DNA of 64,000 nucleotides. Source: Nanobdellati archaeon (GTDB taxonomy: Archaea > Nanobdellota > Nanobdellia > UBA10117). Made by a program: the position numbers and the translations under genes. Below the pieces are notes generated by a model. The model was not told the origin of the DNA. It ran no database searches and saw only the letters and a list, made by a program, of their open reading frames with translations. The stretch is taken from NCBI GenBank assembly GCA_016182015.1, contig JACOYC010000012.1, forward strand, positions 29,623 through 93,622. The letters run 5' to 3'. Numbering within the stretch: position 1 is the first letter of the stretch; every line of letters starts with the position of its first letter. Positions 4,247-50,719 of this stretch are shown in pieces.

Positions 4247-5785
4247 TTGATGGATTTAAAGTTGTTGGAGACAAAAGTTAATTTATGGCTGTCTAACAAA
4301 TATAATTTATATTTTTTAATAATATTTATTTTTGCTTTTGCAGTAAGATTATATTATTTATTTTTGACCAAGAACCAGGCCCTTTGGTGGGATGAAGCAG
4401 AATATCTTAACATGGCTAAACACTGGGCGTTTAGTATGCCATATGATTTAAATCCGCAAAGGCCGCCATTATTTCCGCTTCTCGCTGCAGCTATATTTTC
4501 ACTCAGCGGCGGCGTTTTCGCGGCAAAGCTTTTACTGTCGCTGGTGCCGTCAGTTTTGATAGTTTTTTTAACATATATAATTGCGGGCGAGTTTTACGGC
4601 AAAAAAGCAGGCCTTGTTGCATCTGCATTTATGGCGCTTTTTTGGTTTGCTTTGTTTAATACTGTCAGGTCACATACTGATTTGCTGGCAATGCTGTTTA
4701 GCTCGCTGGCGATTTACTTTGTTTGGAAGCATGCCGAACAGCAAAAAAACTGGATGATGGTTTTGGCCGGCCTGCTTATTGGGCTTTCAGTACTTACGAG
4801 GCTGCTTGCAGGTATAACCGTTATAATTCTGGCAATTTTTCTGCTGATTGCAAAACGCAGGGCGTTGTTTTTTGACAAATATATTTGGTTTTCCGGGCTG
4901 GCCGCAGCCGTTTTTGTTTTGCCGTATTTAATATGGGCAAAGCTGCATTTTGGCAATATACTTGCACCATTTTCAGGCTATGAATCCGCATTTACGGGCA
5001 TTTCTAATACATTTGCGTGGCACGTTTTCGGATTTTTCAAATGGTTCGGCGAGTGGCCAATTTTTATTTTGTTCTTGGCCGGCTGCGCCATGGTTTTAAC
5101 AGATATTGTGCTGGGTCGCGAGTTGGTATTTAAGCAGGAAGGACGGATGCTGCGCGCAAACGCCCTGCTTCTCGTCTGGGTTTTCACATACGTATTTTAT
5201 TTTGTTTTTATCGTAAAAGCATATACAACAGAAGACCGCTGGCTTTTGCCGATTACGATTCCAATGTTTATACTTGCTGCGAGGCCAGTGATTGCCGTTT
5301 TTGATTTTCTTAAGAAATATAACCGCAGCGTTGCGCTTGCAAGTATAGCAGTACTTCTTGTGATTTGTTTGTATCCGCAGTATGCGCATGCCGCAGCAAT
5401 AATACCCGCCAAGGCAAATACATACGCGCAAGAGCCATGGGCCGGCCAGTGGCTCAAAGAAAATACGCAGCCAAGCGACGTTATAATGTCAGTCAACGAA
5501 CAGGCACCGCTTGCATTTTATTCAGAACGCAGAATCTATGGGCTCGACACGCCGGACGGAACAGTTGAGCGAATTAAAAAATTCAAGCCAAAATATTTTG
5601 TCGTAACCGGATACGCGAAGGCAGATTCGTGGCAGGTTAATTTTCCTGAAAAATATAAATACTCAATTGTCCCTGCGCATGCCTTTTTTGAAGACCCGGA
5701 GCACAAACAGCTGGCCATAATAATATATAAATTCAGTAATTATGATTTAAACCCAAGCACAGCTAACAGTCCAACAGATGCGTAA
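4247..5785 (+). CDS. GT39/ArnT(PMT)-like integral membrane glycosyltransferase (dolichyl-phosphate-sugar dependent)
   Basis: About 11 TM helices; WWDEAEY (DE motif) in the first loop is typical of GT-C PMT/ArnT-like enzymes; C-terminal soluble domain. Confidence 0.65.
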   Translation: MMDLKLLETKVNLWLSNKYNLYFLIIFIFAFAVRLYYLFLTKNQALWWDEAEYLNMAKHWAFSMPYDLNPQRPPLFPLLAAAIFSLSGGVFAAKLLLSLVPSVLIVFLTYIIAGEFYGKKAGLVASAFMALFWFALFNTVRSHTDLLAMLFSSLAIYFVWKHAEQQKNWMMVLAGLLIGLSVLTRLLAGITVIILAIFLLIAKRRALFFDKYIWFSGLAAAVFVLPYLIWAKLHFGNILAPFSGYESAFTGISNTFAWHVFGFFKWFGEWPIFILFLAGCAMVLTDIVLGRELVFKQEGRMLRANALLLVWVFTYVFYFVFIVKAYTTEDRWLLPITIPMFILAARPVIAVFDFLKKYNRSVALASIAVLLVICLYPQYAHAAAIIPAKANTYAQEPWAGQWLKENTQPSDVIMSVNEQAPLAFYSERRIYGLDTPDGTVERIKKFKPKYFVVTGYAKADSWQVNFPEKYKYSIVPAHAFFEDPEHKQLAIIIYKFSNYDLNPSTANSPTDA

Positions 5786-7999: not shown

Positions 8000-9002
8000 A
8001 GGATAATATTACGAGTACAGCCAGGACGAACTCTGTGGCGAGTATGCCGCGCGCTGCAGTTTTTTCGTGGCCAAAAAGACGTACAAAAATGTGTACAAGC
8101 GATGCAGTTTTGTCCGGGGCCTTGAGTGTTCCGTCAGGTTGCGGCACATTTGAACAGCTTTCTACTTCAAATTTATAGCGCGCTTTTAGAACCAATTCTG
8201 CGAAGTAGGGCAGGAAGAGTATGACTGCTGCGCGTTCCATGTTGCCTAGGACTGCAAGTATTGCTATGAGTGCGCCAGTTCCGTGCGTTAGTGTATTGCC
8301 CGGAAATATTTTTGCAGGAAATCTGTTGAACAGCAAAAAAGCCAGCAGGGAGACTACTGCGCAGAAGGCGATAATAGCTAACCACGGTGTTCCAGTCAGC
8401 AATGCTATGTAACCTAAGGCAGCTAAAATTATCGCGCCCATTCCCGCCTCTAAACCATTAAGCCCCGCGAGCATATTAAAGCCATTAGTGGCGCCAACTA
8501 TGCTAACTGGAATTATCACCAGCGGGTATAATATTCCAAAATCAATGACACCCAAAAGCGGCAAGAGCATTGCAGAGTGGCCTGCATTTATTACTATCAG
8601 CGGCACTGCGGCAGGCAGCGTGAGAAGCGGTTTTTGCCATTTGGCAAGGCCTTGTTTCCACCCAAGCACGTCATCTATAAAACCCACGAAGCTAGCCAGC
8701 ATGAGTGCAATTATTGCTGCGAACAAAACTATAAGATGTGTTTCTGTTTTTATAATAAATGTTTTGAAAAATACATATGCCAGCAGTCCAGTCAAAGTTC
8801 CAAACAGGACTGGCAGGCCGCCAATTTCTGGAATCAGTATATTACCCAGCTTGTTCGCATCTTTCCCAACCAGATTGAAACGTTTAGCTATGCGTATCCA
8901 CGCCCGTATTAGAAAAAAAGTAGCAAGGAAGCTTAGTAATATGCTAAACAACGCCAAAATTTCAGATCCATCCACCATTTTAACCGTACTTGCTCGGTTC
9001 AA
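7992..9002 (-). CDS. UDP-GlcNAc:dolichyl-phosphate GlcNAc-1-phosphate transferase (MraY/WecA/AglH family)
   Basis: Polytopic membrane protein with GATNGFNMLAGLNGLEAG, characteristic of the polyprenyl-phosphate hexose-1-P transferase family. Confidence 0.8.
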   Translation of the reverse strand: MNRASTVKMVDGSEILALFSILLSFLATFFLIRAWIRIAKRFNLVGKDANKLGNILIPEIGGLPVLFGTLTGLLAYVFFKTFIIKTETHLIVLFAAIIALMLASFVGFIDDVLGWKQGLAKWQKPLLTLPAAVPLIVINAGHSAMLLPLLGVIDFGILYPLVIIPVSIVGATNGFNMLAGLNGLEAGMGAIILAALGYIALLTGTPWLAIIAFCAVVSLLAFLLFNRFPAKIFPGNTLTHGTGALIAILAVLGNMERAAVILFLPYFAELVLKARYKFEVESCSNVPQPDGTLKAPDKTASLVHIFVRLFGHEKTAARGILATEFVLAVLVILSYA

Positions 9003-11625
9003 GATATTTTTTATCAGTTTTTACGCCGGGCGGATACATAACATTCCATATTTTAATTGGGCCTATTATCTGTCCGTTGTAAAATCCGAGCGGCAGGTCG
9101 TCCGAGTAGACTTCGGCGAAGTTTGGATCTGATTCGCCGTAAACATAAAGCCTAGCAAGATTAGTATCCCAAACTTTTTCAGACAGCCACATCACTGCGC
9201 CGTTTTCATATAGTCTGTTGTCCTGAAAGCCAGGCAGCACTACCATGCATCCTTTAATATTGTTAGAGCCGGCTGGCAAATTGGTTCGCGAACCATAAAC
9301 CATGGACTGCTTGTCCGGATTGTACTTGTGAATATAAATACAGCTAACATCTGCCGCAATACTTCGGCCGTTTGAATCAATTATTGCTTTTGCGCCCGTC
9401 ACGCGGTTGTCTCCTGACACATCAATACTAAAGCCAGTTATGGCGCCGCCTCCGGCTGGCAGTACAGAATCGCCGAAAACGTAATCCTTATCCAAGCCCC
9501 ATGCGCCGCCGTATGATAACTGGTAACCATCGCGTGTCTCTTTCTTGTTTTGCAGGCCAAACATACCAATTGTGCTTAGCCTGTCAAGATTTTCATCAGA
9601 CCCTATCAGAGAGAACGCGTAGTATTTTGGTATTTCCTGACTGGAGATCAGTATATGCGTGACGTTATGTGACTTTAGATATTCAAGCGTGCTTGTTTTG
9701 TCCTTTCCAGTTAAAAAGTATCTGCCAGAATCGTGATTCCAGCCCATTGCGTTTCCGCCATCTGTTACAGCGGCCCGCTCGCCAATAGCGGTTGTCATAT
9801 GTCCGTAATCCCACCAGTGGGCAACTACGGAGTCTTTGGGCGTGTTTTCCCTGAGAAAGTTCATGGACGCTTCCCATTGCCCCGGAACCATTGAGCCTAT
9901 TCCGCGGTTGTCATTGTAAGTTTCCCTTGCTTCTGCGTAAAAAGCGAGCGCTGAGAAAAGTATTAATATAATTGCGGCCAGCCGCCATTTCTTTTGTGCG
10001 CCTGCCTTTTCTACTCCTTTTGTGACAAACCAGCCAGCCATGATCGCCGCAGCAGGGGCGAGCGTGAACAGGAGCCTGATAAGTATTCGTGAGCTTACTA
10101 GCGAAAACAGAAATAATACAAGCATGATTATAACCGTGGAGTTTTCTTTTGTAAATATATTTTCGAAATCCGCGCGTTTGTAGGCAAAAATATAAACTGC
10201 TATCAGCGCAACCATAAATAATATCAGCCAGATTACATAATTTCGCGAGAAAAAATCAAACAGCGCGGAAAATTTGCTGCTTCGGCCCCAGCGCCCGAAG
10301 ATAAAAGCTACAAAAAACAACAAATACGTTGCAGAGATAAAATACATCGGTTGCTGGCGCTTAAAGTCCAGCCAGCCGACCGATTTATTTTTGAAAATTG
10401 ATGCAAGAAGCGCGAGCGAGCCAGCCAGCACAAGGAAAAAAACAAAACCGAATGTGTTCCACCAGCCGCCGCTTCCCCAAAATGTTGGCTGGGCGTTTTC
10501 AGCTACTGTTGTTGCCCATCTGGACACGTTCGTCCTGAAAATTGCGCTGACGAGAAATTCCTTAAACGAAGCAAAGTCTACCACACCAATTTTGCCAAGA
10601 AATGGTACTGCCAGGCCGGCAACAAGAAATACCGCCAGCGATGAAACAATCTGTTTCGGGGCAAACTTTGAGGCTGCGTCCATTATTTTTGTATTTTTTG
10701 TAAATTCAAATGCGGCGTAAATTATCATCGGCAGAACAAGGAATGCCAGACTCTCAGTTGATTTTACCCAGTCCAATATGCGCGCGTCTTTTATTATTGA
10801 GTAAAAAATGCTTAACACGATGTAAAGAGACAGATAGCCGTAGAATTGCCGGCGGTCTATTTTTGAGAAAAATACCGATAGAAGAAGTGAGAAGCCCACT
10901 GTTGCGGCAAGGTAGCTGAATCCACCCCACGTGCCAGCCATCAGCGCCGCAAAAAAGCCAGATAGCGAGCCAGCCAGCAGGGTTTTTTTAATATTATTTG
11001 ATTGCCACATCTCCACGAACAGCCAGAGCGATATAAACATCCAGAGCATAGCCATGGCTTCATGGTCAGCGAATCCTGCTGATGTCCTTTGGATGTATGC
11101 TGGCAGGACTGCGAGGAAGGCAGTTGATACCAATGCAACCCGATCTCCGAAAAGTTTTCTCACGAAAAGGAAGAAGAACACAAAGCTGATGAGTGTGACA
11201 ACAACCGGATAATATATGTGCCAAGTTATCAGCTTGAGGTTTGGCATGAGCAAATGGAAAAATTTATACCAGTAAACCATTGTGAGTGGGAAAAACTTGA
11301 ATGGCGCCGTAGGAACGCCGACAGGGACGTAGCGCATTAAGTCAATTGCGGGCAGCGTTCCGGTTTCTAAAATCATTTTTGAATACCTGAAGAAAAAATA
11401 CGAATCAAGCTCTATCATATACCTGCCCTGCAGCAGGCCAAGGTTTCTTGTCCTAAGGTACGCAGCCAAAACCAAAACTGCGGCCAGCAGTATGAGATAT
11501 AGCCAGGCAGAGTTAAGCGGGTTGCGCAGGTGTATGCCTTTTATGTCCTTTCCTATTTCTTCAACGCCGAACCAGCCCTTTAGTTTGGAAAAGAATACTG
11601 TTTTTCTCTGCTCCAACTCATCCAT
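8980..11625 (-). CDS. aglB: Archaeal oligosaccharyltransferase AglB (STT3 homolog)
   Basis: 881 aa, about 13 N-terminal TMs, WWDYGH catalytic motif in the C-terminal periplasmic domain. Confidence 0.92.
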   Translation of the reverse strand: MDELEQRKTVFFSKLKGWFGVEEIGKDIKGIHLRNPLNSAWLYLILLAAVLVLAAYLRTRNLGLLQGRYMIELDSYFFFRYSKMILETGTLPAIDLMRYVPVGVPTAPFKFFPLTMVYWYKFFHLLMPNLKLITWHIYYPVVVTLISFVFFFLFVRKLFGDRVALVSTAFLAVLPAYIQRTSAGFADHEAMAMLWMFISLWLFVEMWQSNNIKKTLLAGSLSGFFAALMAGTWGGFSYLAATVGFSLLLSVFFSKIDRRQFYGYLSLYIVLSIFYSIIKDARILDWVKSTESLAFLVLPMIIYAAFEFTKNTKIMDAASKFAPKQIVSSLAVFLVAGLAVPFLGKIGVVDFASFKEFLVSAIFRTNVSRWATTVAENAQPTFWGSGGWWNTFGFVFFLVLAGSLALLASIFKNKSVGWLDFKRQQPMYFISATYLLFFVAFIFGRWGRSSKFSALFDFFSRNYVIWLILFMVALIAVYIFAYKRADFENIFTKENSTVIIMLVLFLFSLVSSRILIRLLFTLAPAAAIMAGWFVTKGVEKAGAQKKWRLAAIILILFSALAFYAEARETYNDNRGIGSMVPGQWEASMNFLRENTPKDSVVAHWWDYGHMTTAIGERAAVTDGGNAMGWNHDSGRYFLTGKDKTSTLEYLKSHNVTHILISSQEIPKYYAFSLIGSDENLDRLSTIGMFGLQNKKETRDGYQLSYGGAWGLDKDYVFGDSVLPAGGGAITGFSIDVSGDNRVTGAKAIIDSNGRSIAADVSCIYIHKYNPDKQSMVYGSRTNLPAGSNNIKGCMVVLPGFQDNRLYENGAVMWLSEKVWDTNLARLYVYGESDPNFAEVYSDDLPLGFYNGQIIGPIKIWNVMYPPGVKTDKKYLEPSKYG

Positions 11626-13323: not shown

Positions 13324-13376
13324 GATATAAATTGCTTGTATAGATTTATAAGGATTATTTAGTTATAAATTTACAC

Positions 13377-13564
13377 GGGCCGATGGTCCAGAACGTAAGT
13401 GGACAATGGTACGACGTCTCCTTCACACGGCAGCTTCTTTCTTTCCAAAAGAAAGACGCTCCCGGGCATCTAGAAAGAAAGGAGTGCGATCGTAGATCGC
13501 ACTAAACTTTTTGGATTCCCGAGGAAAAGGGAGAAGATCGCAGGTTCGATCCCTGCTCGGCCCA
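13377..13564 (+). tRNA. tRNA-Val (anticodon CAC) with about 101-nt intron at canonical 37/38 site; possible extra insertion in D-loop
   Basis: Acceptor GGGCCGA/TCGGCCC, T-arm GCAGG-TTCGATC-CCTGC; anticodon stem TCTCC/GGAGA split by intron; loop TTCACA gives anticodon CAC; D-region longer than normal. Confidence 0.6.
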
Positions 13565-14560: not shown

Positions 14561-15677
14561 ATGAAATCCATATTAGGCCAAGCCGCAGAGCTCTGCATGC
14601 CAATCAAAGAAGAACAGGCAAAAGTAGCACAAATAATAAAAGAGATTGAAAATAAAGTTAACTCCGCGCTGAAAAAATCTAAGATTACTGCAAGATGCTC
14701 GGTTGGTGGCTCTGTCGCGAAGGGGACTTGGCTGCCAGGCGTTTCAGATATTGACTTTTTTATTTTATTCGATTACGAAAAATATAAGGGCGAGCACCAG
14801 TTTTTATCTGATGTGGCGGAAAAAGTTTTGAGAAGTATTTTCAAAGGCGTGCAGCGCCTGCATGGCTCGCGCGACTATTTCAATGTAAATTACAAAAAAT
14901 ATATTTTAGAGTTTGTGCCGGTGCTGGAAATTTCTGAGCTGTCAGATGCGCTAAACCTGACGGACTACTCGCCGCTGCATGTTTACTGGGTTCGCGACAG
15001 AGTAAAAGCAAATAGGAAACTGCAATCTGAAGTGCGACTGGCAAAGCAGTTTTTCAAAGCAAACGGCGTTTACGGCGCGGAGTCATACATCTCAGGATTT
15101 TCAGGGCATGTAACTGAAATTCTGACAATTTATTACGGCGGATTTCTGCGGCTCTTAAGCAGCCGCAGCCTTGGGCGAGGAAAAATTTTATTTACTAAAA
15201 AAAGCCGCAAAGAAATTTTTAACAAATCAATCAATAGAATTTTTCAAAATAAAACAGTTTGATGTGAATTCGCTGAAACAAAAAAAAGGCCGGGCTTTGT
15301 TTGTGCTGCAGGCAAGCCGGACAAAGGGAAAAGATGATGTTGTTGGTTCGAAGTTTTTGAAGCAGTTTGAGCAGCTTAAGTCGGGCATAAGTAAATTGGA
15401 TTTTAAAATTATAAGCTCTGGCTGGCACTGGTCCTGCGAGGGAAATGCCACATTTTGGGTTTACTTGCCAGCAAAGCCGCTTTCAAGCAAAAAGATAATA
15501 GAAGGCCCGCCAATAAATATGCCCGATGTTTTCATAAAGCAGTTTAAGAAAAAGTGGAAAAAAGTTTTTATAAAAAACAAAAGATACATAGCAAAGACAA
15601 AAAGAAAAATAATTTTGCCACGAGAAGTTATCAAAATAGCGGCGTCTGCACTCAAACTAAAACTACTAACTAAATAA
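14561..15677 (+). pseudogene. cca: CCA-adding enzyme (archaeal class I tRNA nucleotidyltransferase) interrupted by frameshift near 15156-15175
   Basis: N-terminal part CSVGGSVAKGTWLPGVSDIDFFILF and FSGHVTEILTIYYGGF is class I CCA; the reading frame switches (ORFs 14561-15262 and 15171-15677 overlap); the downstream frame carries FYLLKKAAKKF, the CCA body motif. Confidence 0.7.
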
Positions 15678-20730: not shown

Positions 20731-22359
20731 ATGACAAACCAGAATGTACAGCCGATATTTATCCTGCCGGAAGGCACACTGAGAAGCCAGGGAAGAAACG
20801 CACAGAAAGCTAACATAAGCGCAGCTAAAGCGGTGGCCGATACAGTCCGGACTACGCTCGGGCCGAAGGGCATGGACAAGATGCTCGTGGATTCCATTGG
20901 CGATGTTGTAATCACAAACGACGGCGTCACGATTCTTAATGAGATGGAGATTGAGCACCCTGCCGCAAAGATGATGGTCGAAATCGCGAAGGTTCAGGAG
21001 GATGAGGTTGGCGATGGGACAACGACCGCGGTAGTGCTGGGCGGCGAGTTGCTGAAAAATGCGGAATCGCTTTTGGAAAAAAATATACACCCGACTGTTA
21101 TCGCGAACGGCTACAAGCAGGCCTCTGAAAAGGCACAGGCCATCCTTAACGAACTGTCAAAGCCAGTCTCCATAAAAGACACTGATGTTTTGAAAAAAAT
21201 CGCGATGACAGCGATGACAGGCAAAAATGTAGAGATTGCACGCGAAAAGCTGGCGCAGATCGCATTAGATGCAGTCCTGAAAGTCGCAGAAAACTCAGAT
21301 ATAGACCGAGACGATGTAAAACTTGAGAAAAAAGAGGGCGGCGGGATTGATGACTCGCAGCTGATCGACGGCGTTGTTATTGACAAAGAAAAAGTTCATG
21401 CAGACATGCCAAAGTCCGTGAAAAACGCGACGATTGCGCTGCTGGACTGCGCCCTCGAAATAAAAGAGACAGAGACGGAGGCAAAAATTCAGGTGGCTGA
21501 CCCCAAGCAACTTCAGGCGTTCCTTGACCAGGAGGAAAAAATGCTGAAGAACATGGTTGAAACGATTGTAAAATCCGGCGCAACTGTTGTTTTCTGCCAG
21601 AAGGGCATTGACGATATTGTACAGCACTACCTTGCGAAGAAAGAAATTTATGCCGCACGCCGAGTGAAAGAGTCAGACATGAAAGCGCTGGCAAAGGCGA
21701 CTGGCGCAAGAATAATTGCAAGCCTTAATGATTTGAAGGCAGGGGATTTGGGCAAGGCCGGCCTTGTTGAAGAGAGAAAATTACACAAAGAGTCAATGAC
21801 TTTTGTTGAGCGGTGCAAGAATCCTAAGTCGGTTACTATTTTGCTGCGCGGCGGCACAGAACATGTTGTTGCAGAAGTTGAGCGCGCGATGACAGATGCG
21901 ATTGGCGACTTGATTGCTGCAATTATTGTTGGAAAATTTGTTGTTGGCGGCGGCGCTGTTGAAATTGAGCTGGCAAAACGGATGCGAAGCTTTGCTGAAA
22001 CACTGTCGGGAAGGGAGCAGCTTGCGGTGCAGGCGTTTGCGGATTCTCTCGAAGTAATACCAAGAACGTTAGCAGAGAATGCGGGCCTTGACCCGATTGA
22101 TTCCTTAACCGAACTGAAAGCAAAGCACGATAAGGGCGAGGCAACAGCCGGTCTGAATGTTACGACGGGCAGGGCGGAAGACATGTTGGCGAAGGGCGTG
22201 ATTGAGCCGCTAAAAATAAAAACGCAGGCAATTCAGTCGGCATCAGAAGCTGCGATAATGCTGCTGAGAATTGACGATGTAATATCGGCAAGCAAATTGA
22301 GCCGGGGCGGGCCGCCCGGAATGCACGAACCTGGACAGATGGGCGGGGAAGATTTTTAG
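20731..22359 (+). CDS. ths: Thermosome subunit (group II chaperonin)
   Basis: [28 protein letters not shown] motifs; 542 aa; C-terminal GGM-like tail. Confidence 0.95.
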
Positions 22360-22428
22360 ATTTTTTTGATTACAATTGTTGCATTGGCAAAGCCAATGCG
22401 ACTCGGGGATTGGAAGTGACTAAGAACG

Positions 22429-22445
22429 AAGGGGCAGAGCCCCTT
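22429..22445. terminator. Stem-loop AAGGGGC-AGA-GCCCCTT between convergent thermosome and ATPase genes
   Basis: Perfect 7-bp inverted repeat with 3-nt loop in the convergent intergenic region. Confidence 0.4.
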
Positions 22446-22492
22446 GGGTCTTAGGGACAGATGGGCGGGGAAGATTACTAAAAATCTGCTAA

Positions 22493-25772: not shown

Positions 25773-26314
25773 TATTCAAAATTAAAAAAACAGGTAGAAA
25801 AGCCCTGACACCAATAATCGCAGTCATACTTTTGCTCATGATGACTGTCGCGGCGGCAGGCGCGGCATTCTTCTGGATTTCCAGAATACAAGGGCAGATG
25901 CAGGGCGGCGTGGAATCTTTCGAAGGCAGGATTTTCGAGGGCATTGCATCGCAGATAAATGTTATTGATGCGGACTACTCCACAAGCTCCGAGAACTTGA
26001 CTATTTTCTTTCACAACACCGGCAACAAAAAAATCCCGCTGAAAAACACGGATGTGAACCCTACAACAACCTGGATTCTGAGAAACCCCGACCAGGAAGT
26101 TGTATGCTCAACGGACTGGAGCGGCAAAAGCACTAGTGTAGCATGCAGCGGGTGCGGCTCAACAGTCGAAGTTGACATAGGCCAGCTGAAGAGCATCTCT
26201 CTGAACACTGCAAACACTGCCTGTGATATAACAAAATATGGCGGCGGGAAGGCATTTACGTTTACAATAGATTTTTCAGGGCAGACAACAACATCAGGCA
26301 GCTTTATTTCTTAA
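25769..26314 (+). CDS. Archaeal type IV pilin-like protein (DUF1628-type N-terminus), paralog 1
   Basis: RKALTPIIAVILLLMMTVAAAGAAFFWISRIQGQ; Cys-containing C-terminal module with DWSG. Confidence 0.65.
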   Translation: MIFKIKKTGRKALTPIIAVILLLMMTVAAAGAAFFWISRIQGQMQGGVESFEGRIFEGIASQINVIDADYSTSSENLTIFFHNTGNKKIPLKNTDVNPTTTWILRNPDQEVVCSTDWSGKSTSVACSGCGSTVEVDIGQLKSISLNTANTACDITKYGGGKAFTFTIDFSGQTTTSGSFIS

Positions 26315-26354
26315 TAGGAAAGCTTATATTAGAATAAATTAAAGACAATATAAA

Positions 26355-26987
26355 ATGGCCACTACGAAACGTGCAATAGCGCGCAGCCTGCTGGCTCCGC
26401 GAATTGCTTTTTCAAATAGAAAAGCAATAATGCAGAACAGAGTTCCGCAAATTGCATTTCGTCCGCGAAACGCGATTACACCAATAATCGCAGTCATAAT
26501 GCTGTTGATGATGGCGGTAGCCACTGCGTCAGCAATGTATTACTGGTTAAACAGGATACAAACGCAGCAGCAGGGCGCGATAGAAAGCTTTCAATCAGGC
26601 GTGTTTGAAAACCTTGCGTCTAACGTAGATATAATCGGAACAAAATACATAGACGGCAACCAAACCCTGGAGCTGGTAGTAGAAAATACTGGCAATACAA
26701 AAATTACTATCTCGAACTCTGGCACAAAACCGACAACTGAGTGGACTGTGCTTGACTCTGACCAAAAGCCCGTGTGCGCGGTAGACTGGAGCGGGACTGG
26801 CAGCAACACGCGCTGTCTCTCCGGCTGCGGAACTTCGACTATTCTTAATACTGGCCAGATAAGGCGCATCCTGCTTAATTTGACCGCCAGTGACTGCGCA
26901 ATACAATACCTTGCGAATGGCTCTACATTCACATTCGAAATAAGCTGGAGCGGCAAAACAAAATCCGCAGGGAGCTTTGTAAAATAA
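26355..26987 (+). CDS. Archaeal type IV pilin-like protein, paralog 2 (probable true start 26430)
   Basis: MQNRVPQIAFRPRNAITPIIAVIMLLMMAVATASAMYYWLNRIQTQQQG; C-terminal VDWSG...CLSGCG. Confidence 0.65.
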   Translation: MATTKRAIARSLLAPRIAFSNRKAIMQNRVPQIAFRPRNAITPIIAVIMLLMMAVATASAMYYWLNRIQTQQQGAIESFQSGVFENLASNVDIIGTKYIDGNQTLELVVENTGNTKITISNSGTKPTTEWTVLDSDQKPVCAVDWSGTGSNTRCLSGCGTSTILNTGQIRRILLNLTASDCAIQYLANGSTFTFEISWSGKTKSAGSFVK

Positions 26988-26988
26988 A

Positions 26989-27918
26989 ATGCAATATAAG
27001 GCTGTAACGCAGGACAGAGTTCCGCGAATTTTTTGTTCCAGGAAAACAATTACTCCGATTATAGCAGTCATACTGACTATGATGATTGCAGTTGCAGCTG
27101 GCGGCGCAATGTTTTATTGGATAAGCAGGCTTCAGACGCAGGACCAAGGCGCAGTTACGCAGTCTCAGCAAAGGCTTTTTGAAACACTGTCGGCCTGCCT
27201 ATCACTATCATCTTTTGACATGAACTTAATTAGCAACAGATCAAACTTCGTACTGCAGAACTGCGGCAGCACAAAAATAAATTTTGGAGATGCAAATGCT
27301 GAGGACTTTGGCATAATCAGCTCGCAGGGAATAGATCCGTGCACTTTTAGTGTAAACACAACAAGCTGTATCGGCTGTCCGGTTTTTCTTAAACCCGGGG
27401 AGGCCGCAACACTGTCGCTGAATTGGACAAACGAAAAACGTTGTGTCGGCCAGATCGTGGCTGGCAAGCAATATCAAGTATTATTCAACGTCGACAGGAC
27501 GGTCAGTGCATCGCGCGATTTTGTGCCTGAATCAGCAGCAAGATGCGGCTTAAATTTTGAGAACGCCACAAGGCTGGCCGCACAGGCACACCACGCAGGC
27601 AACCCACCAAGCTACTGCTACAAGTTCCAGCTGACAAACACCGGCAACGCGGCCGACACATACAACTTTACAAATTCTACCGGTACAAACTGCGGCTCTG
27701 CTCGCATACTTACAATCGGCTGTGGGGCAACGGGAATTGCGAACCACACAATATCGCTGGCTGCAAGCGAAAACTACACAATTTATTTTAACCAGACTGT
27801 AATAACCGCGGATTTAACTTGCACAAGTACCATTACTGCAGCCTCGCTCAACTGCAGCGCAAGCATATCTAAGGACACCAGCACTTCATATATATCTCCA
27901 GGGGATGCCGCACAGTAA
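26989..27918 (+). CDS. Archaeal type IV pilin-like protein, paralog 3
   Basis: DRVPRIFCSRKTITPIIAVILTMMIAVAAGGAMFYWISRLQTQDQG; extended Cys-rich C-terminus. Confidence 0.65.
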   Translation: MQYKAVTQDRVPRIFCSRKTITPIIAVILTMMIAVAAGGAMFYWISRLQTQDQGAVTQSQQRLFETLSACLSLSSFDMNLISNRSNFVLQNCGSTKINFGDANAEDFGIISSQGIDPCTFSVNTTSCIGCPVFLKPGEAATLSLNWTNEKRCVGQIVAGKQYQVLFNVDRTVSASRDFVPESAARCGLNFENATRLAAQAHHAGNPPSYCYKFQLTNTGNAADTYNFTNSTGTNCGSARILTIGCGATGIANHTISLAASENYTIYFNQTVITADLTCTSTITAASLNCSASISKDTSTSYISPGDAAQ

Positions 27919-33634: not shown

Positions 33635-35890
33635 TTGTTTTGCTATTTGGTAATGCAACTGTCAGAATTAGGAAAAAAATTGCCGGCTAAGCTTTTAGAG
33701 AGCTTAAGCAAAACACAAGAACTCAGGCCATGCCAGCAGAAAGCGATTGATACTGGTTTATTGGAAGGGAAAAGCCTGCTGGTGTGCTCGCCAACCGGCT
33801 CGGGCAAAACACTCGTGGCAGAAATTGCCGCAGTAAAAAATATTCTCGAAGGAAAAGGAAAATGTGTTTACATCGTCCCGCTAAAATCGCTTGCCTCAGA
33901 AAAATTCGAGGAGTTTAAAAATAAATATGAAAAGCTTGGAGTAAAGGTTGCAATTTCGATCGGCGATTTGGATTCGGCAGACCCGTGGCTGGCCGAGAAA
34001 GATTTTATCATCACGGTTTCAGAAAAGCTGGATTCTTTGATTCGCCATGGTGCGCCTTGGATTTCTCAAGTTGCCACTGTTGTGATTGACGAAATTCATC
34101 TGCTGAACGACCCTGGGCGCGGGCCGACACTAGAAATATTGGCGACAATGCTGAAGAAAATTCTAAAGAACTCTCAGTTTATCGCCCTCTCCGCAACGAT
34201 TGGCAACCCAAAAGAACTCGCCTCCTGGCTCTGTGCAGAATTAGTTGAAGATGCCTGGCGACCCGTAAAATTATATGAAGGAACGTTTTTTCCAAATGAA
34301 GTTGATTTCTTTGGCGGAAAGGAAAAGATAACCATTCCGGAAAAGTTTTCTGAGCCGGCAGTCCAGCTGGCAATAAACACGATCGCGATTGGCAAGCAGG
34401 CCCTGGTGTTCTGCGCGACAAAACAATCGGCCGAGGCTATGGCAGAAAAAATTTCAAAAGCAAATGCAAATGTTCGGCAGGTTGATTTAGCAAAGAAAAT
34501 TTTGCACGCGCTCCCAAAACCAACTGTGCAGTGCAGAAGGCTGGCAAAATCTGTTCTGCGCGGCGTCGCGTTCCATCACGCAGGCCTTGTTCAAAAGCAA
34601 AAAAGCCTGATTGAAAATTCATTCAGGAGTGGCGCGGTAAAGATTATCTGCTGCACCCCGACTTTAGCGGCGGGCGTTAATCTCCCCGCATTCCGCGCGA
34701 TAATGAAATCCCTGAAAAGATATTCGGAGAAGTGGGGATACTCTTACATCCCTGTTCTCGAATATAAGCAGATGACTGGCCGCGCTGGCCGGCCCGGCAT
34801 GGAAGCATTTGGCGAAGCCATATCCATCGCCGGCTCTGAGGATGAGGCGCGCGAGATTTACGACAAATATATCTGTGGCACGCCGGAGGAGATCGATTCA
34901 AAGCTTGCAGTTGAGCCAGTTCTGAGGATGGCAATTCTTGGCCTGATAGCATCCGGCTTCTGCAGGACTGCTGAATCAGTGATAGAATTTTTTGGAGACA
35001 CGTTTTACGGATTTTCATACGCAAACGATTACGAAATTAAATCTAACGCAAGCCGAACAAGTTCGGCTGCGCCCAGTCGAATAGAATTCGACTTGGGAAT
35101 TATGAAAATTCTGCAGAAATTAAAAGATTACAAATTTATTGAACAAAACGCGGAAAAGATTTATGCGACTTACTTGGGAAAACGGGTTGCTGAGCTATAT
35201 TTGGATCCGGAGTCCGCATTTACTCTAATTAACGGATTGAAAATTGCGGATGTTGCTGAAACGCAGACAATTTCTTACTTGCATTTGATTTCTTCTGTAA
35301 TTGAAATTCCAAATCTAAAATTCAGGAAATCAGATTCTGAGTTCTTGCAGGAGAAGCTGATCGAGCTCGAGCAATACCTGCTGGCCAAGCCGCCTTCAGA
35401 ATTCTCTTGGGAGTATGAGGAATTTCAGGATTCTTTCAAGACCGCTTTGTTGTTTGAGGATTGGATTTCGGAGATGTCCGATGATGAGCTGATGGAAAAA
35501 TATAAAATCCGGCCTGGTGAGCTTCGCACTAAGTTAGCAAACGCAGACTGGCTTCTGTATTCGTGCCAGGAGATTTCACGCATTTTAAACTTCAAGGATT
35601 TAATTTCCGAGCTTATCAAATTGCGCGTCAGGATGAAGCACGGGCTTAAAGAGGAGCTGCTGTCGCTGAAAAAGCTGAAGGGCATCGGCAGGTACAAAGC
35701 CCGCAAGATGTTTCGTGCTGGCCTGACAAGCATACAGAAAGTAAAGGAAGCAAAGTATGAGCTGCTTGCCGGTCTGATCGGCCCGAGGACTGCTGTCAAG
35801 GTGAAGGGCCAGCTTGGGGAAAAAGTCGAGCCACAGCAAATAATTAAAAAGGGACAATCTGGACTTTCTGATTATGGGGCTGTAGTCTAA
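33635..35890 (+). CDS. hel308: Hel308/Ski2-like ATP-dependent DNA helicase
   Basis: Walker A SPTGSGKT, DEIH box, 751 aa, C-terminal HhH/WH domain. Confidence 0.85.
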   Translation: MFCYLVMQLSELGKKLPAKLLESLSKTQELRPCQQKAIDTGLLEGKSLLVCSPTGSGKTLVAEIAAVKNILEGKGKCVYIVPLKSLASEKFEEFKNKYEKLGVKVAISIGDLDSADPWLAEKDFIITVSEKLDSLIRHGAPWISQVATVVIDEIHLLNDPGRGPTLEILATMLKKILKNSQFIALSATIGNPKELASWLCAELVEDAWRPVKLYEGTFFPNEVDFFGGKEKITIPEKFSEPAVQLAINTIAIGKQALVFCATKQSAEAMAEKISKANANVRQVDLAKKILHALPKPTVQCRRLAKSVLRGVAFHHAGLVQKQKSLIENSFRSGAVKIICCTPTLAAGVNLPAFRAIMKSLKRYSEKWGYSYIPVLEYKQMTGRAGRPGMEAFGEAISIAGSEDEAREIYDKYICGTPEEIDSKLAVEPVLRMAILGLIASGFCRTAESVIEFFGDTFYGFSYANDYEIKSNASRTSSAAPSRIEFDLGIMKILQKLKDYKFIEQNAEKIYATYLGKRVAELYLDPESAFTLINGLKIADVAETQTISYLHLISSVIEIPNLKFRKSDSEFLQEKLIELEQYLLAKPPSEFSWEYEEFQDSFKTALLFEDWISEMSDDELMEKYKIRPGELRTKLANADWLLYSCQEISRILNFKDLISELIKLRVRMKHGLKEELLSLKKLKGIGRYKARKMFRAGLTSIQKVKEAKYELLAGLIGPRTAVKVKGQLGEKVEPQQIIKKGQSGLSDYGAVV

Positions 35891-35995
35891 CTTGGTCACA
35901 TGCCAAAAACTGCGTTTTTGTCGGGTGTTTGGCGTAGCCAAACAGGACTCGCGGTTCGGGACTGCGCGGTCGAGGTTCAAATCCTCGCAGCCTCA
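35876..35995 (+). tRNA. tRNA-Pro (anticodon CGG) with about 47-nt intron at non-canonical D-loop position
   Basis: Acceptor GGGGCTG/CAGCCTC, anticodon stem CGCGG/CTGCG with loop TTCGGGA, T-arm CGAGG-TTCAAAT-CCTCG; D-stem GTC...GAC split by inserted CATGCC...AAACAG. Confidence 0.6.
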
Positions 35996-41814: not shown

Positions 41815-42699
41815 TCAGCGCGCGGGATGTGACAAAATTGTTCCTGAACTGGCCGATTTTTTTCTTTGTAATCGCCTTCCATTTTGTTTTCTTGCTGGCT
41901 TGGCATGCTCTTTTTCTGGCTCAATTATTTCCTCTGGCTCGGCAAACTCCTCTTTCTTAATTGCTGCATCGCCAAGACCGTCGTGCAGGTCTATAAAAAT
42001 TTCCTTAAATGCCTCTTCCTGCCGCAGCTCGACTTTCTGGTGTTGCGCGAGATGAAGCAGCGGCAGCAGCGTCCAGATAATATCTTTCTTTTCCTTGCTG
42101 GGCAGGATTTCTGAAAATGTTACAGAATTCTTTTTGAACCGGTGCACAAATGATTTTATTTTTGCCCAGAGCAGCTCTATTTTAGCGAAAATATCTACTT
42201 TCTTAATTGTTATTTCCCTTGGTTTTCGGAGCTCAGCCATATCAATTTGTTTTTGCTCTCTTCTTTGATCAACTTCGAGGGCTTTTTTCAGCGCGTCCAT
42301 AAGTTCGAATACAGTGACTTTTCTTTTTCTTACGCCGGGGATTCGCGCGGCCAGCGAAGCTTTTTTGAAGTGCTTTTCCTCTTCTAAGTCAACCAAATCA
42401 GTTTCATTCTCATGTAAATCATCGCCGCACTCATCCGGATTTGTTAGGGCAAGCAACTGTTCAACGCCTAGCCGCTCAGTTTTCATTTTTAGAAGAATAG
42501 CCGCAGCAAGAACAACCTTGCCGGACAGCCGAAAATTATGCTGTTTTAACTCTCGCAGCACGCGCAGGTATTCCCGGGCCAGCACAGAAACGTCCAAATC
42601 CCACGGGTCAATCTTGCCTGCACGAACAAGGTCATAGATAATGGCCTGCCATTTGACATCGTCTCCCTGCAGTATCATATCATAGATTTCCTTAGACAT
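41815..42699 (-). CDS. scpA: Segregation and condensation protein A (ScpA, kleisin)
   Basis: N-terminal WQAIIYDLVRAGKIDPWDLDVSVLAREYL kleisin motif. Confidence 0.8.
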   Translation of the reverse strand: MSKEIYDMILQGDDVKWQAIIYDLVRAGKIDPWDLDVSVLAREYLRVLRELKQHNFRLSGKVVLAAAILLKMKTERLGVEQLLALTNPDECGDDLHENETDLVDLEEEKHFKKASLAARIPGVRKRKVTVFELMDALKKALEVDQRREQKQIDMAELRKPREITIKKVDIFAKIELLWAKIKSFVHRFKKNSVTFSEILPSKEKKDIIWTLLPLLHLAQHQKVELRQEEAFKEIFIDLHDGLGDAAIKKEEFAEPEEIIEPEKEHAKPARKQNGRRLQRKKSASSGTILSHPAR

Positions 42700-43342: not shown

Positions 43343-46300
43343 ATTTTAACGCTTACTACGTTCGACCAGCCGTCCTTTGTCATACTAACGCCATAAATGC
43401 TGTCAGATTCGGATATTACTGCGTCGTTGTGCGTCACAATTATCACCTGCGCTTTTTGCGAGTATTCTTTCAGCAGCCTCGCAACTCTCTCAGAATTTAC
43501 CTTGTCGAGTGCGGCGTCAATTTCATCCAGAAGGTAGAACGGTGCAGGCTCGTGCTCCTGGATTGCGAAGATAAACGCCAGCGCAGCAAGGGTTTTCTCA
43601 CCGCCGGACAGCGATGTCAGGCTTGTCCGCCTGCCTTTCGCATCAATTATTTTTACAAGCACGCCGCCCCCAAACGGATTTTCAGGATTTTCCAATTCAA
43701 GGGTTGCGTGGTTTTTGTCGGCAATTTTTGCGTGCAGTTCCATGAATTTTTCAGCAATTTTTTCATATGTGCCGATGAACGCATCTTTCTTTTTCTTTTC
43801 GATTTCATCTATAACGCCAAGCACATCATTTTTTTCCGCTTGCAGCTTATTTGTTCTGCTAGCAAGGTTCTCGTACTCCTGCTGAACAGCTTCAAACACT
43901 TCCAGCGCGCGCATATTTATAGAACCGAGCGACTGTAGTTTGTCATTTACTGATTTTATTTTCTTTTTTGCGTCTTCAATATTTTTCACTTCTGCAAGCG
44001 TAATATCTGTGAAGGGCTCAAATTCCTGTTTCAGGCCGGCAAGCTCAGCTTCGTACTGGGCCTTTTCTATTGCGAAGTTATTTTTTGCCTGCTCTGCCTG
44101 CGAAATTTTCAGCATATGCTCGTTGAGCTGGGATTCCGTTTCGCGTAAAAGCGTGCCTGCCTGATTTTTGTTTGCAAATAGTTCTTTTATTTTCGCGTGG
44201 AATTTTTCTTCATCAGTTTCTTTGCCGTTTATGTCTTTTTCCAGTTTTTTCAACTGCGACTCTTCATCAACAATTTGTTTTTCAAACTCCTTTTTTTCTT
44301 TTTCAAGGTGCTTTAGGTTTTTCTCGATGCGCTCAAGCTCTGGGCGCAGGCTGTTGTCAAGAGCAGCAGTTATCGTGGCAAGCTGTGATTCTACATCAGA
44401 TTTTTTGGCCAGAAGCTCCTCGATTGCTTTTTTATTACCGCCGAACTGCAGGTCGCGCGCCCGCAGGCTTAGTTCATTTCGCTCCTGCGCTGCGGTTTTT
44501 AGTTTTGATTCAATTGAAGTGCGCTCGCTTTCAGCCTCAGCAAGTTTTTTCTGCAAATCAGATTTTTGTTTTTCCAAATCGTCCTGTTTTTTCCGGAGCT
44601 TTTCCTTTTCTTTCTCGCCGTAAATTTCTTTTGCAAGGACTGCCTTGCCTTCCAGCTCAGCTTTTTCCCCGCGCAGGCCGGAAATTTTTTCCTGAAGCTT
44701 CTCTCGCTCAGCCTGCATTTGTTTAATATTTTTATTTATGACAGAGAGGTCAGCTTCAAGTTTTACGACGAGGCCCTGCATCTCTGTTTGCTCAAAACCT
44801 ATTCCCGCACCTTTTTCACGGAAGCCGCCGGTTATAGCACCGCTCTGTTCAAACAAATCGCCGTCTAAAGTTACCATTCGGTATTTTCCTACGCCGAGCG
44901 ATCTTGCAGTTTGTATGCTTTCAACAACAAGCGTGTTCCGGAAAATATATTTGAATAAATTTTTATATTTTGATTCACATGTTATGAGGTTGTGTGCAAG
45001 GCCGATCACGCCGGACTTTTTCAGCGTGCTGGCCTCGACCTGCTGGCCCGCAGATATCTTGTCAAGCGGCAGGAAAGTAGCAGTGCCTGCCCGCGCATCT
45101 TTCAGGACTTGTAGGCATTTTATCGCAACATCAACAGATTCAGTGACTATATTTTTCATCCGCGCCCCAGCCGCGATTTTCAGGGCTTCTGCGTATTCTT
45201 TGTCAACTTTTCCCAGTTCTGCTATAGTTCCAAGCACGCCAGGCATTTTTTTCTTTGCTATTTCCTTGACTGCCTGATCGCGCTGCAGCATTTCTGAGAT
45301 AGAGCTGGCATGGGCCCGCGCCTTTGCAAACTCTTCTTCTTTTTTGATAAGTTCTTTATGCAGCTCGCCGGTGTCAAGGGCGAGTTTTGAATCCCGGCTG
45401 GCCAGCGCGGATATCTCGTCAGATATTTTTTTGAACCTGTTTTTGGCATCCTTCACGTCAGAAAACTTTTCTTCATCCTTTTCTATTTTTTTCAGTTCTT
45501 CTTCAGCAGATTTAAGTTCATGCTCGAGAATTTTCATATTTGATTGTATCTGGTAGTAAGCAGTGTTGGCTTTTTCCCGCTCGTCGCTGAGATCTTTAAG
45601 TGCTTCATCGAGGCGTTTTGCGTCCTTTTCCAGTTCGGCAAGCTCCGAGTCTGACTCGCCCTTTTTTGATGGCTCTGCGCGTTTTTTTATTAATGTAAGC
45701 TCCTTTTCAAGTTCAGTTTTATTTTTTTCATTGTTTTTTATTTTTGTTTCCAGCTCAGCGAGTGCGCCGCTCCAGTCCGCCTTTCTTGCATCTGCCTTCT
45801 GCAGCTCCGCGCGCGAGTTTGAAATTAGCAGCCTGCTCTTTTCAGCGGAGACTTTTAGGCCTTCAATTTCTTTTTGCAGGGCCTGCGCTTCTTCGCCGCC
45901 TTTTTTTTGGATTTCTTTTTCGAGGCGCTCTATGTTGTTCCTGAACTGGCCGATTTTTTTCTTTGTAATCTCGACTTCGAGCCCAAGGTTGTTTACTGCC
46001 TGCTCCTGCTTTTCTATCTCGCTGAGGGTTTTGTTTTTTCTTGTGTTTGTCAAGTCAGTGCGGAGTTTTATCTCCGCGGCCCGCAGTCCTTTCAGCTCGG
46101 CCTGCATGCTTCTGTATCTCTCCGCGCCCTTCTTTTCCTCTTCGAGATTTTTCATGTAATTTTCTTTTTCGCGCAGGATTATGCCTGCTTCTTTCAGCTT
46201 ATCATCAACTTTTGCAAGTTCTGCCAGCGCTTTGTTTTTACGCTCTTCATATACGCCGATGCCAGCCACTTCTTCAACAAGCTGCCTTTTTTCCAGAGGC

Positions 46301-50439: not shown

Positions 50440-50535
50440 CGGTGACCGTGATTAGATTTAAAAGCTGAGAATAAAAGCTTTGTCTGTGCCGATAGCCCAA
50501 AAGCTGCGCTTTTGTGGAATCGTCACGCTCCGCGT

Positions 50536-50719
50536 GCCGACGTCGCTTAACCCGGTATAGCGCTGGTCTCGAAAACCAGTCCCGCAAGGGATTGCAGGTT
50601 CAAATCTAAGATCCAAGGGGGCGCTGCCCCCTTAGTTCTTAGTCACTTCTGATCCCCCGGTCGCATCGCTACGCGATGCAACTAAGGATTAGCAGTGAAG
50701 GAAAATCCTGCCGTCGGCG
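50536..50719 (+). tRNA. tRNA-Ser (anticodon CGA) with about 101-nt intron at non-canonical T-loop position 60/61
   Basis: Acceptor GCCGACG/CGTCGGC, discriminator G, D-arm GCT-TAACCCGGTAT-AGC, anticodon stem CTGGT/ACCAG with loop CTCGAAA, long variable arm TCCCGCAAGGGA, T-stem GCAGG and T-loop TTCAAAT, then an insert before CCTGC. Confidence 0.75.

Follow-up and report, generated by a model that had tools for sequence, protein, structure and literature searches.

A two-intron tRNA-Val gene of a Woesearchaeota archaeon and the probable movement of its longer intron

A valine tRNA gene, tRNA-Val(CAC), lies on a 64-kb stretch of archaeal DNA (contig JACOYC010000012.1; the whole 64,000-nucleotide (nt) stretch that was analysed is hereafter called the window), and comparison with its counterparts in related genomes indicates that it is very probably a functional gene of a Woesearchaeota (DPANN) archaeon interrupted by two introns of the bulge-helix-bulge (BHB) type, the longer of which appears to shift position between relatives and is not homologous to the T-loop intron of the tRNA-Ser(CGA) gene of the same window. 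The organism was placed in the Woesearchaeota from the relatives of its DnaG. Without the two insertions, the tRNA-Val is 72 nt long and aligns without gaps with three uninterrupted orthologs, and its helices are maintained by compensatory changes, also between genomes that both have the introns. Relatives are referred to by handles (L002, L016, etc.) where they need to be told apart.

The tRNA-Val(CAC) gene and its predicted splicing

The gene and its parts, in window positions, are the following.

13346-13352, plus strand: putative TATA box TTTATAA, centre 28 nt 5' of G1 (read from the sequence)
13377-13564, plus strand: tRNA-Val(CAC) gene with two insertions
13377-13391, plus strand: exon 1, nt 1-15 (acceptor 5' strand, U8 G9, D-stem 5' strand, A14 G15)
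13392-13406, plus strand: D-loop intron, 15 nt, AACGUAAGUGGACAA, position 15/16, relaxed BHB of HBh' type
13407-13427, plus strand: exon 2, nt 16-37 (remaining D arm, anticodon stem 5' strand, U32 U33 C34 A35 C36 A37)
13428-13528, plus strand: anticodon-loop intron, 101 nt, position 37/38, family V (hairpin A 13433-13459, long hairpin B 13460-13525, tail GGAAAA)
13529-13564, plus strand: exon 3 (G38, anticodon stem 3' strand, variable loop, T arm, acceptor 3' strand, discriminator A)

Read from 5' to 3', the region runs GGGCCGA UG GUCC AG(AACGUAAGUGGACAA)UGGUA CGAC G UCUCC UUCACA(101 nt)G GGAGA AGAUC GCAGG UUCGAUC CCUGC UCGGCCC A, with the insertions in parentheses. In relatives, too, tRNA-Val(CAC) adjoins DnaG, where it is found in several intron states, and the orthologs in L004, L005, and L033 are uninterrupted (72-73 nt), with D-loop AG(C/U)GGUA and anticodon loop UUCACAG. 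ARAGORN recognised the fully spliced window sequence as tRNA-Val(cac) and rejected the unspliced and half-spliced forms, while its intron mode returned boundaries of exactly 13377-13564 but parsed the gene wrongly as Phe(aaa); these boundaries and the alignment with intact orthologs bear out the original prediction, made by a model from the sequence alone, of a tRNA-Val(CAC) at this place. Default ARAGORN and Rfam at the gathering threshold found no tRNA across the entire window, and permissive Rfam thresholds gave no tRNA match at the tRNA-Val region. ARAGORN run over 775 candidate excisions was non-discriminating, with nearly all accepted, and we used instead the comparison with intact orthologs and an explicit BHB rule, i.e., a 4-base-pair (bp) central helix between two 3-nt bulges, with cleavage following the second nucleotide of each bulge.

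Cloverleaf pairing of the tRNA-Val reached 95.9% over seven orthologs, compared with 81% in shuffles and 40-55% in slid controls, and the acceptor, anticodon, and T stems were 100% paired. Eight compensatory pairs were counted, a number matched by 9 of 500 shuffles, while in none of the 500 did the paired fraction or the covariation score come up to the value observed. Between the window and L002, for example, A7-U66 is exchanged for G7-C66 and C29-G39 for G29-C39 (alignment columns, corresponding to tRNA 30-40), the latter pair spanning the intron. Such a compensated cloverleaf across orthologs points to selection on the gene for tRNA function, so that both insertions must leave the RNA. Upstream, TTTATAA is a putative promoter element, and the block ATAGATTTATAAGGATTATTTA at this box is conserved 5' of the L002 ortholog as well.

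A second insertion, of about 13 nt, had been suspected in the D region, and it is indeed there, though it measures 15 nt. It has a perfect central helix (4/4 pairs, GUCC/GGAC), 3-nt bulges AG|A and AA|U, a 2-bp inner helix, and a GUAA cap (for archaeal BHB geometry and the relaxed hBH definition, see PMC4090602). This exon-intron helix covaries, as GUCC/GGAC in the window corresponds to GUCU/AGAC in L002, with C13-G becoming U13-A. An intron also occupies the 15/16 site in L002 (22 nt) and in L016 (99 nt), and the combination of a 4/4 central helix and correct bulges occurs in six independent introns, i.e., the tRNA-Val D-loop introns of the window, L002, and L016, the 46-nt D-loop intron of the window tRNA-Pro, and the tRNA-Ser T-loop introns of L030 (36 nt) and L031 (33 nt).

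The 101-nt intron was found at 37/38, as originally predicted, and its removal restores the anticodon loop TTCACAG, identical to that of the uninterrupted L004, L005, and L033 genes; the splice point can shift by 1 nt owing to a repeated A. The intron has a fold stability z of -6.5 and a relaxed hBH motif whose 3' site is well formed, with a 5-bp outer helix (the anticodon stem), bulge AA|G, and a 3/4 central helix, in which U32-A, U33-A, and C34-G pair (UUC/GAA) and are followed by an A35.G mismatch. The same 5-bp outer helix, 3-nt bulge AA|N, and 3/4 central helix are shared by the long intron of L002 and by the tRNA-Ser T-loop intron. The long tRNA-Val intron is, as judged from these features, a plausible but imperfect predicted substrate of the tRNA splicing endonuclease EndA, and its cleavage would require a broad-specificity enzyme. 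DPANN EndA variants with broad specificity have been reported, as have larger numbers of disrupted tRNA genes where the DPANN EndA has an L3 loop (PMC5829648).

In the pathway we propose, transcription of the pre-tRNA-Val would start from the TATA box ~28 nt upstream, and EndA would excise both the 15-nt intron at 15/16, a well-formed HBh' substrate, and the 101-nt intron at 37/38, a relaxed hBH substrate in which the intron GAA would pair with U32-U33-C34 and place the 3' splice site in the AA|G bulge beside the anticodon stem. An RtcB-type ligase, as in the known pathway, would then unite the three exons into the 72-nt tRNA.

Other kinds of intron were considered and rejected. Group I and group II self-splicing introns need cores of at least ~200 nt (group I) or 400 nt (group II), as against inserts of only 15-101 nt, and gave no Rfam match. 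An intron bearing a C/D box small RNA (sRNA) was likewise discarded, as the C box (RUGAUGA) is lacking both in family V and in the family of the tRNA-Ser intron (family S), and Rfam gave no snoRNA match; by reading of the sequences, family V also lacks a D box, and the Ser intron has CUGA. Across four regions, at gathering and permissive thresholds, no Rfam family matched the introns, and the only match was a partial tRNA in tRNA-Ser (50545-50579).

Intron families within and beyond tRNA genes

The orthologs of tRNA-Val differ in their interruptions. L002, whose DnaG is 81% identical, has the same two as the window, and L016 has the 99-nt D-loop intron without an anticodon-loop intron. L034 carries a single 43-nt T-loop intron ending GAAAA|U (gene at 8062-8175), its D-loop and anticodon loop being uninterrupted. 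L032 (DnaG 87%) ends short of the tRNA-Val site and stands outside the ortholog comparison.

Within family V, the window intron at 37/38 and the L016 intron at 15/16 aligned with a local score of 61 against 19.6 +/- 3.8 in 1000 dinucleotide shuffles (z 10.9; nhmmer E 2e-19), over hairpin A and the base of hairpin B, and the window and L002 introns aligned with z 6.4. As these comparisons make the window and L016 introns clearly homologous, a family-V intron appears to have changed position in evolution, from one loop to another of the same orthologous tRNA. The 15/16 introns of the window and L002 (15-22 nt) share the same (G/A)GACAA end, and a history in which a long 15/16 intron was copied to 37/38, after which the D-loop copy shrank, would fit. 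A borderline nhmmer match to family V in L019 lies within the DnaG coding sequence and was set aside as chance; the hairpin pattern of the family had eight matches in viral contigs, all of them chance matches inside coding sequence, and is too loose for a metagenome scan.

The tRNA-Ser(CGA) gene of the window has two insertions of different families, and orthologs were located in two relatives.

50486-50492, plus strand: other copy of the 7-bp direct repeat GTGCCGA
50493-50540, plus strand: 48-nt insertion at the tRNA-Ser 5' end, consisting of a 41-nt family-P element and one GTGCCGA copy
50536-50719, plus strand: tRNA-Ser(CGA) gene body including the T-loop insertion; once spliced, ARAGORN Ser(cga), 83 nt
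50606-50706, plus strand: T-loop intron, 101 nt, family S, position 59/60 or equally 60/61
~8330-8470 of L030 and ~6868-6990 of L031 (both reverse complement): orthologous tRNA-Ser(CGA) genes

The length of 101 nt and the 60/61 site had been given for the Ser T-loop intron from the start, and both stand, 59/60 serving equally well. T-arm introns of tRNA-Ser differ in position, length, and sequence among the three genomes, i.e., 54/55 in L030 (36 nt), 58/59 in L031 (33 nt), and 59/60 in the window (101 nt), and L030 additionally has an 11-nt intron at 37/38. ARAGORN, intron mode included, detected neither the L030 nor the L031 gene. The four tRNA-Val states and the three tRNA-Ser T-arm introns together show very fast gain, loss, and repositioning of introns in this lineage.

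The site of the 5' insertion of tRNA-Ser is empty in L030 and L031 (...TGT|GCCGACG), and the inserted element is related to the intron of the window tRNA-Pro (z 5.1; nhmmer E 1e-6), the two making up family P. When the Ser 5' element was tested as an acceptor-stem BHB intron, no convincing motif was found in any register, and it may be a simple 5' leader. The TATA-to-G1 spacing of tRNA-Ser, 28 nt as in tRNA-Val, matches the first GTGCCGA copy, so that the 5' element would be transcribed.

35876-35995, plus strand: tRNA-Pro(CGG) gene with a 46-nt D-loop intron of family P at 35898-35943

This third interrupted gene yields a 74-nt Pro(cgg) in ARAGORN once spliced, and its intron has a perfect 4/4 central helix (UUGG/CCAA) with bulges UC|A and AC|A. 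A Hel308-like helicase open reading frame (ORF; 33635-35890) lies upstream and overlaps the tRNA by 15 nt.

Family S was also found outside any tRNA, next to the thermosome gene on its 3' side.

22333-22354, plus strand: first copy of the direct repeat, GGACAGATGGGCGGGGAAGATT, comprising the final codons of the thermosome coding sequence
22355-22454, minus strand: family-S element, 100 nt, outside any tRNA, between the thermosome and T2SSE ATPase genes
22455-22476, plus strand: second copy of the direct repeat, identical to the first

Over its first 61 nt, the Ser intron is 85% identical to window positions 22454-22396 (minus strand; E 4e-12), and in the thermosome-site copy both hairpin A and the distal hairpin-B stem are preserved by compensatory changes; this copy has no Rfam match. 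The perfect 22-bp direct repeat that flanks it was considered as a BHB in either register and rejected on inspection, as the repeats are direct and not complementary. A third S copy, with unrelated flanks, was the single match of one metagenome scan with the family-S core, on the Hainich groundwater metagenome contig L029, which is short and without usable context; a scan of viral contigs with the same core gave no matches.

At the same thermosome site, L035 (1843-2103) has an S element within a 26-bp duplication, L002 (reverse complement, 9611-9739) a shorter S derivative within a 29-bp duplication, and L037 (~4606-4730) a different hairpin element within a ~27-bp duplication that has two mismatches, while in L036 (~4369) the site is empty, with a single repeat copy. 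The two copies of the repeat are identical within a genome, or nearly so in L037, and correspond to the end of the coding sequence as it has diverged in that genome. The thermosome 3' end thus looks like a recurrent target of small hairpin elements, filled in four of five related genomes with duplications of 22-29 bp. In L035, a 100-nt two-hairpin element (X; 1956-2055) is nested in the hairpin-A loop of the S element and bounded by a 5-bp repeat (TCTGC in the S sense); no second copy of X was found among the sequences compared.

Mobility of the introns thus seems real, being supported by three sets of related sequences, i.e., V in the window and L016, S in tRNA-Ser, at the thermosome site, and in L029, and P in tRNA-Pro and at the tRNA-Ser 5' end. 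The general idea with which the analysis began, that related introns occupy different positions, holds up in these cases, while the Val-Ser pair that had been offered as its evidence does not.

How such introns originate is a separate question, and a possibility to be taken seriously, though we would not favour it, is that the ~100-nt introns were first of all mobile elements at the DNA level, either miniature non-autonomous elements or integration scars, which would insert into many kinds of site, with the target duplications (7 bp, 22-29 bp) as the mark of their insertion, and would persist in tRNA loops only because the structure there permits excision by EndA; this concerns origin and is compatible with the two-intron reading of tRNA-Val given above. 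The filled thermosome sites of the window, L035, and L002, each with a duplication of its own end of the coding sequence, speak for it, as do the different element with duplicated flanks in L037, the empty site in L036, the nested element with its 5-bp repeat in L035, the family-P insertion with its 7-bp duplication and empty counterparts in L030 and L031, the S copy in the unrelated sequence of L029, and, as a precedent, the proposal that tRNA introns are acquired when a mobile element integrates (Sugahara 2012, PMC3293823). Judged as miniature inverted-repeat transposable elements, the insertions show empty sites (the L036 thermosome; the L030 and L031 tRNA-Ser 5' ends) and bracketing direct repeats, but the repeats are of no fixed length (4, 5, 7, and 22-29 bp), unlike those made by a single transposase, and no terminal inverted repeats spanning the elements were found. 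Further, a Pfam survey found no transposase or integrase gene in the window, the copies in tRNA loops lack long duplications, and the identical repeat copies of each genome could also be explained by gene conversion after one ancestral insertion. A more specific version, which we regard as somewhat more doubtful still, is that families V, S, P, and X are small mobile elements inserting into hairpin-loop-like DNA targets, and surviving in tRNAs because their A-rich 3' tail can pair with the loop and so form an EndA substrate; the targets, offered just as tentatively, would be the D, anticodon, and T loops of tRNAs, a loop within another such element, and the thermosome 3' end, with duplications of 5-29 bp outside tRNAs. 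Circular omega-RNAs of IS200/IS605 elements were considered as a link and rejected, as no BHB was found at those circles (PMC12558985).

Likeness of the tRNA-Val and tRNA-Ser introns

The original prediction held that the 3' halves of the long tRNA-Val intron and the tRNA-Ser T-loop intron are homologous and share a module ACTAA...GGATT...GGAAAA, and the likeness behind it is considerable. Both introns are 101 nt long, both fold into a hairpin A and a long hairpin B with a perfect-palindrome triloop tip, followed by a single-stranded tail, all of these folds being very stable (z -4.6 to -7.1), and both interrupt a 7-nt loop that begins with UUCA, on a 5-bp stem, between its sixth and seventh nucleotides. 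In both, the GAA and AA of the GAAAA tail lie at the intron 3' end, where GAA pairs with U32-U33-C34 (Val) or U54-U55-C56 (Ser) and gives the AA|N bulge.

On these grounds, the two introns might descend from one ancestor with a conserved 3' module (hairpin, ACTAA, GGATT, GGAAAA) that was copied between tRNAs, and the shared architecture, the same site, and the same hBH geometry, together with a global alignment of hand-picked 3' segments of 46-47 nt (z 3-4, reached by 1-4 of 1000 shuffles, with boundaries chosen post hoc), speak for such an origin. We nevertheless consider it improbable, as pairwise alignment, profile hidden Markov models (HMMs), and a covariance model all failed to connect the introns. 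Full-length local alignment scored at the level of shuffled sequences (z -1.0 to +0.3 under four scoring schemes; z -0.18 in the family comparison), nhmmer profiles, one per family and each based on three members, gave no cross-family match at E up to 10 in ~470 kb, and a family-V covariance model, run over the whole window with filters off, gave the tRNA-Val intron 99.8 bits, while the Ser intron was absent from its matches up to E=10. The module does not hold together either, as ACTAA and GGATT are missing in the other members of both families, the other S copies reading GCAACAATTGTAATC and GCAACGAAGACGATG. The tail, finally, recurs in the T-loop intron of L034, which ends GAAAA|U yet has z <1.4 against both V and S, and therefore seems to be a structural requirement, i.e., pairing with UUC, rather than a mark of common descent. 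By these comparisons, homology is not supported, and the likeness of the two introns would lie in a common architecture and in pairing with a 7-nt loop that starts with UUC.

Several points weigh against the reading of tRNA-Val as a gene with two spliceable introns, the longer of them position-shifting and separate from that of tRNA-Ser. The BHB of the long intron is imperfect, with A35.G as the fourth pair of the central helix and a 5' splice site without an inner helix, and the Pfam survey found no EndA or RtcB gene in the 64-kb window. Family V consists of three sequences only, which makes the family alignment shaky, and by DnaG identity the closer L033 (72%) and L034 (68%) are without V while L016 (64%) has it, so that its history would require precise losses or independent gains. 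A very deep homology of V and S, below detection at 100 nt, is possible.

That the interrupted genes are dead, inactivated by small mobile elements that are never spliced out, seems very improbable to us, since, although standard tRNA finders reject these genes, the long inserts have relaxed BHBs only, and insertions of family S, with target duplications, are found at sites other than tRNAs too, the exon helices are kept by compensatory substitutions between genomes that both carry introns, an exon-intron BHB helix covaries, the tRNA-Val promoter block is conserved, all three tRNA genes in the 64 kb are interrupted and each becomes a perfect tRNA once spliced, and orthologs in five genomes each have different spliceable introns.

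The genes next to tRNA-Val are archaeal and comprise an AglB/STT3-like ORF, DnaG, and a class I CCA-adding enzyme. The last (14561-15677, plus strand) is in two overlapping ORFs (14561-15262 and 15171-15677) and is a single 422-aa gene in L033 and L034; the split may be a frameshift or a sequencing error. Elsewhere in the window, a perfect 36-nt direct repeat (minus strand GATTACAAAGAAAAAAATCGGCCAGTTCAGGAACAA) occurs at 45935-45970 and 41838-41873, in the SMC gene and at the 3' end of ScpA, in different frames, and 25797-27152, downstream of a type IV secretion ATPase gene, holds diverged tandem paralogous segments (73-78% identity) with small ORFs without a Pfam match.

Comparison with known systems

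Multi-intron tRNAs with relaxed BHBs at non-canonical positions, including families ascribed to intron transposition, are known from the Thermoproteales, and disrupted tRNAs also from Nanoarchaeota and Micrarchaeota (PMC4090602, PMC3239211), while undetected disrupted tRNAs have been suspected in DPANN genomes (PMC5829648). The present genes resemble these, as far as the earlier work (Marck & Grosjean 2003; Sugahara 2008) is represented in PMC4090602, in their relaxed HBh' and hBH motifs, in having several introns per gene, and in being missed by standard finders. They differ in that the host is a groundwater member of the Woesearchaeota with three of three window tRNAs interrupted, in that the orthologs of close relatives have different introns at different positions, which points to very fast turnover, and in that family S also occurs outside tRNA genes, with long target duplications.

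Intron transposition, as PMC4090602 presents the report of Fujishima 2010, rests on similar introns at different positions and implies gain by copying and not by vertical descent, with the mechanism unknown. Under a definition of intron families of this type, the window tRNA-Val intron at 37/38 belongs with the L016 intron at 15/16 and not with the Ser intron at 59/60. Compared with that account, the clearest case here, family V, shifts within one orthologous tRNA-Val, between D-loop and anticodon loop. In Caldiarchaeum subterraneum, a mobile-element model likewise ties tRNA disruption to insertion at the DNA level and repeated flanks, but there a 1.8-kb element encodes a recombinase, whereas the elements here are 40-100 nt long, encode no protein, and have no recombinase nearby (Sugahara 2012, PMC3293823). 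The C/D box sRNA intron of tRNA-Trp in Haloferax and Pyrococcus resembles the long tRNA-Val intron in being ~100 nt long, highly structured, and at 37/38; families V and S, lacking a C box and any Rfam match, give no hint of a guide function.

The findings suggest that Woesearchaeota tRNA genes are far more fragmented than standard annotation shows, which helps explain incomplete DPANN tRNA sets. Close relatives offer a natural series, i.e., tRNA-Val without an intron, with a T-loop intron, with a long D-loop intron, or with a short D-loop and a long anticodon-loop intron, alongside three T-arm introns of tRNA-Ser, and the S copies outside tRNAs, with filled and empty sister sites, make the mechanism of archaeal intron gain testable in a Woesearchaeal lineage. 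If the mobile-element origin were true, these copies would provide direct evidence of the way in which archaeal BHB introns are gained, a question open since the 2010 report of transposition as it is cited in PMC4090602.

The two-intron tRNA-Val is a known kind of gene in a new lineage, and the less expected part is that copies of an intron family lie outside tRNAs. To our knowledge, S-type copies outside tRNA genes with long duplications are not part of the Thermoproteales picture, and we know of no earlier description of a BHB intron family that combines copies outside tRNA genes, long target duplications, and both empty and filled sites in sister genomes, as family S does here.

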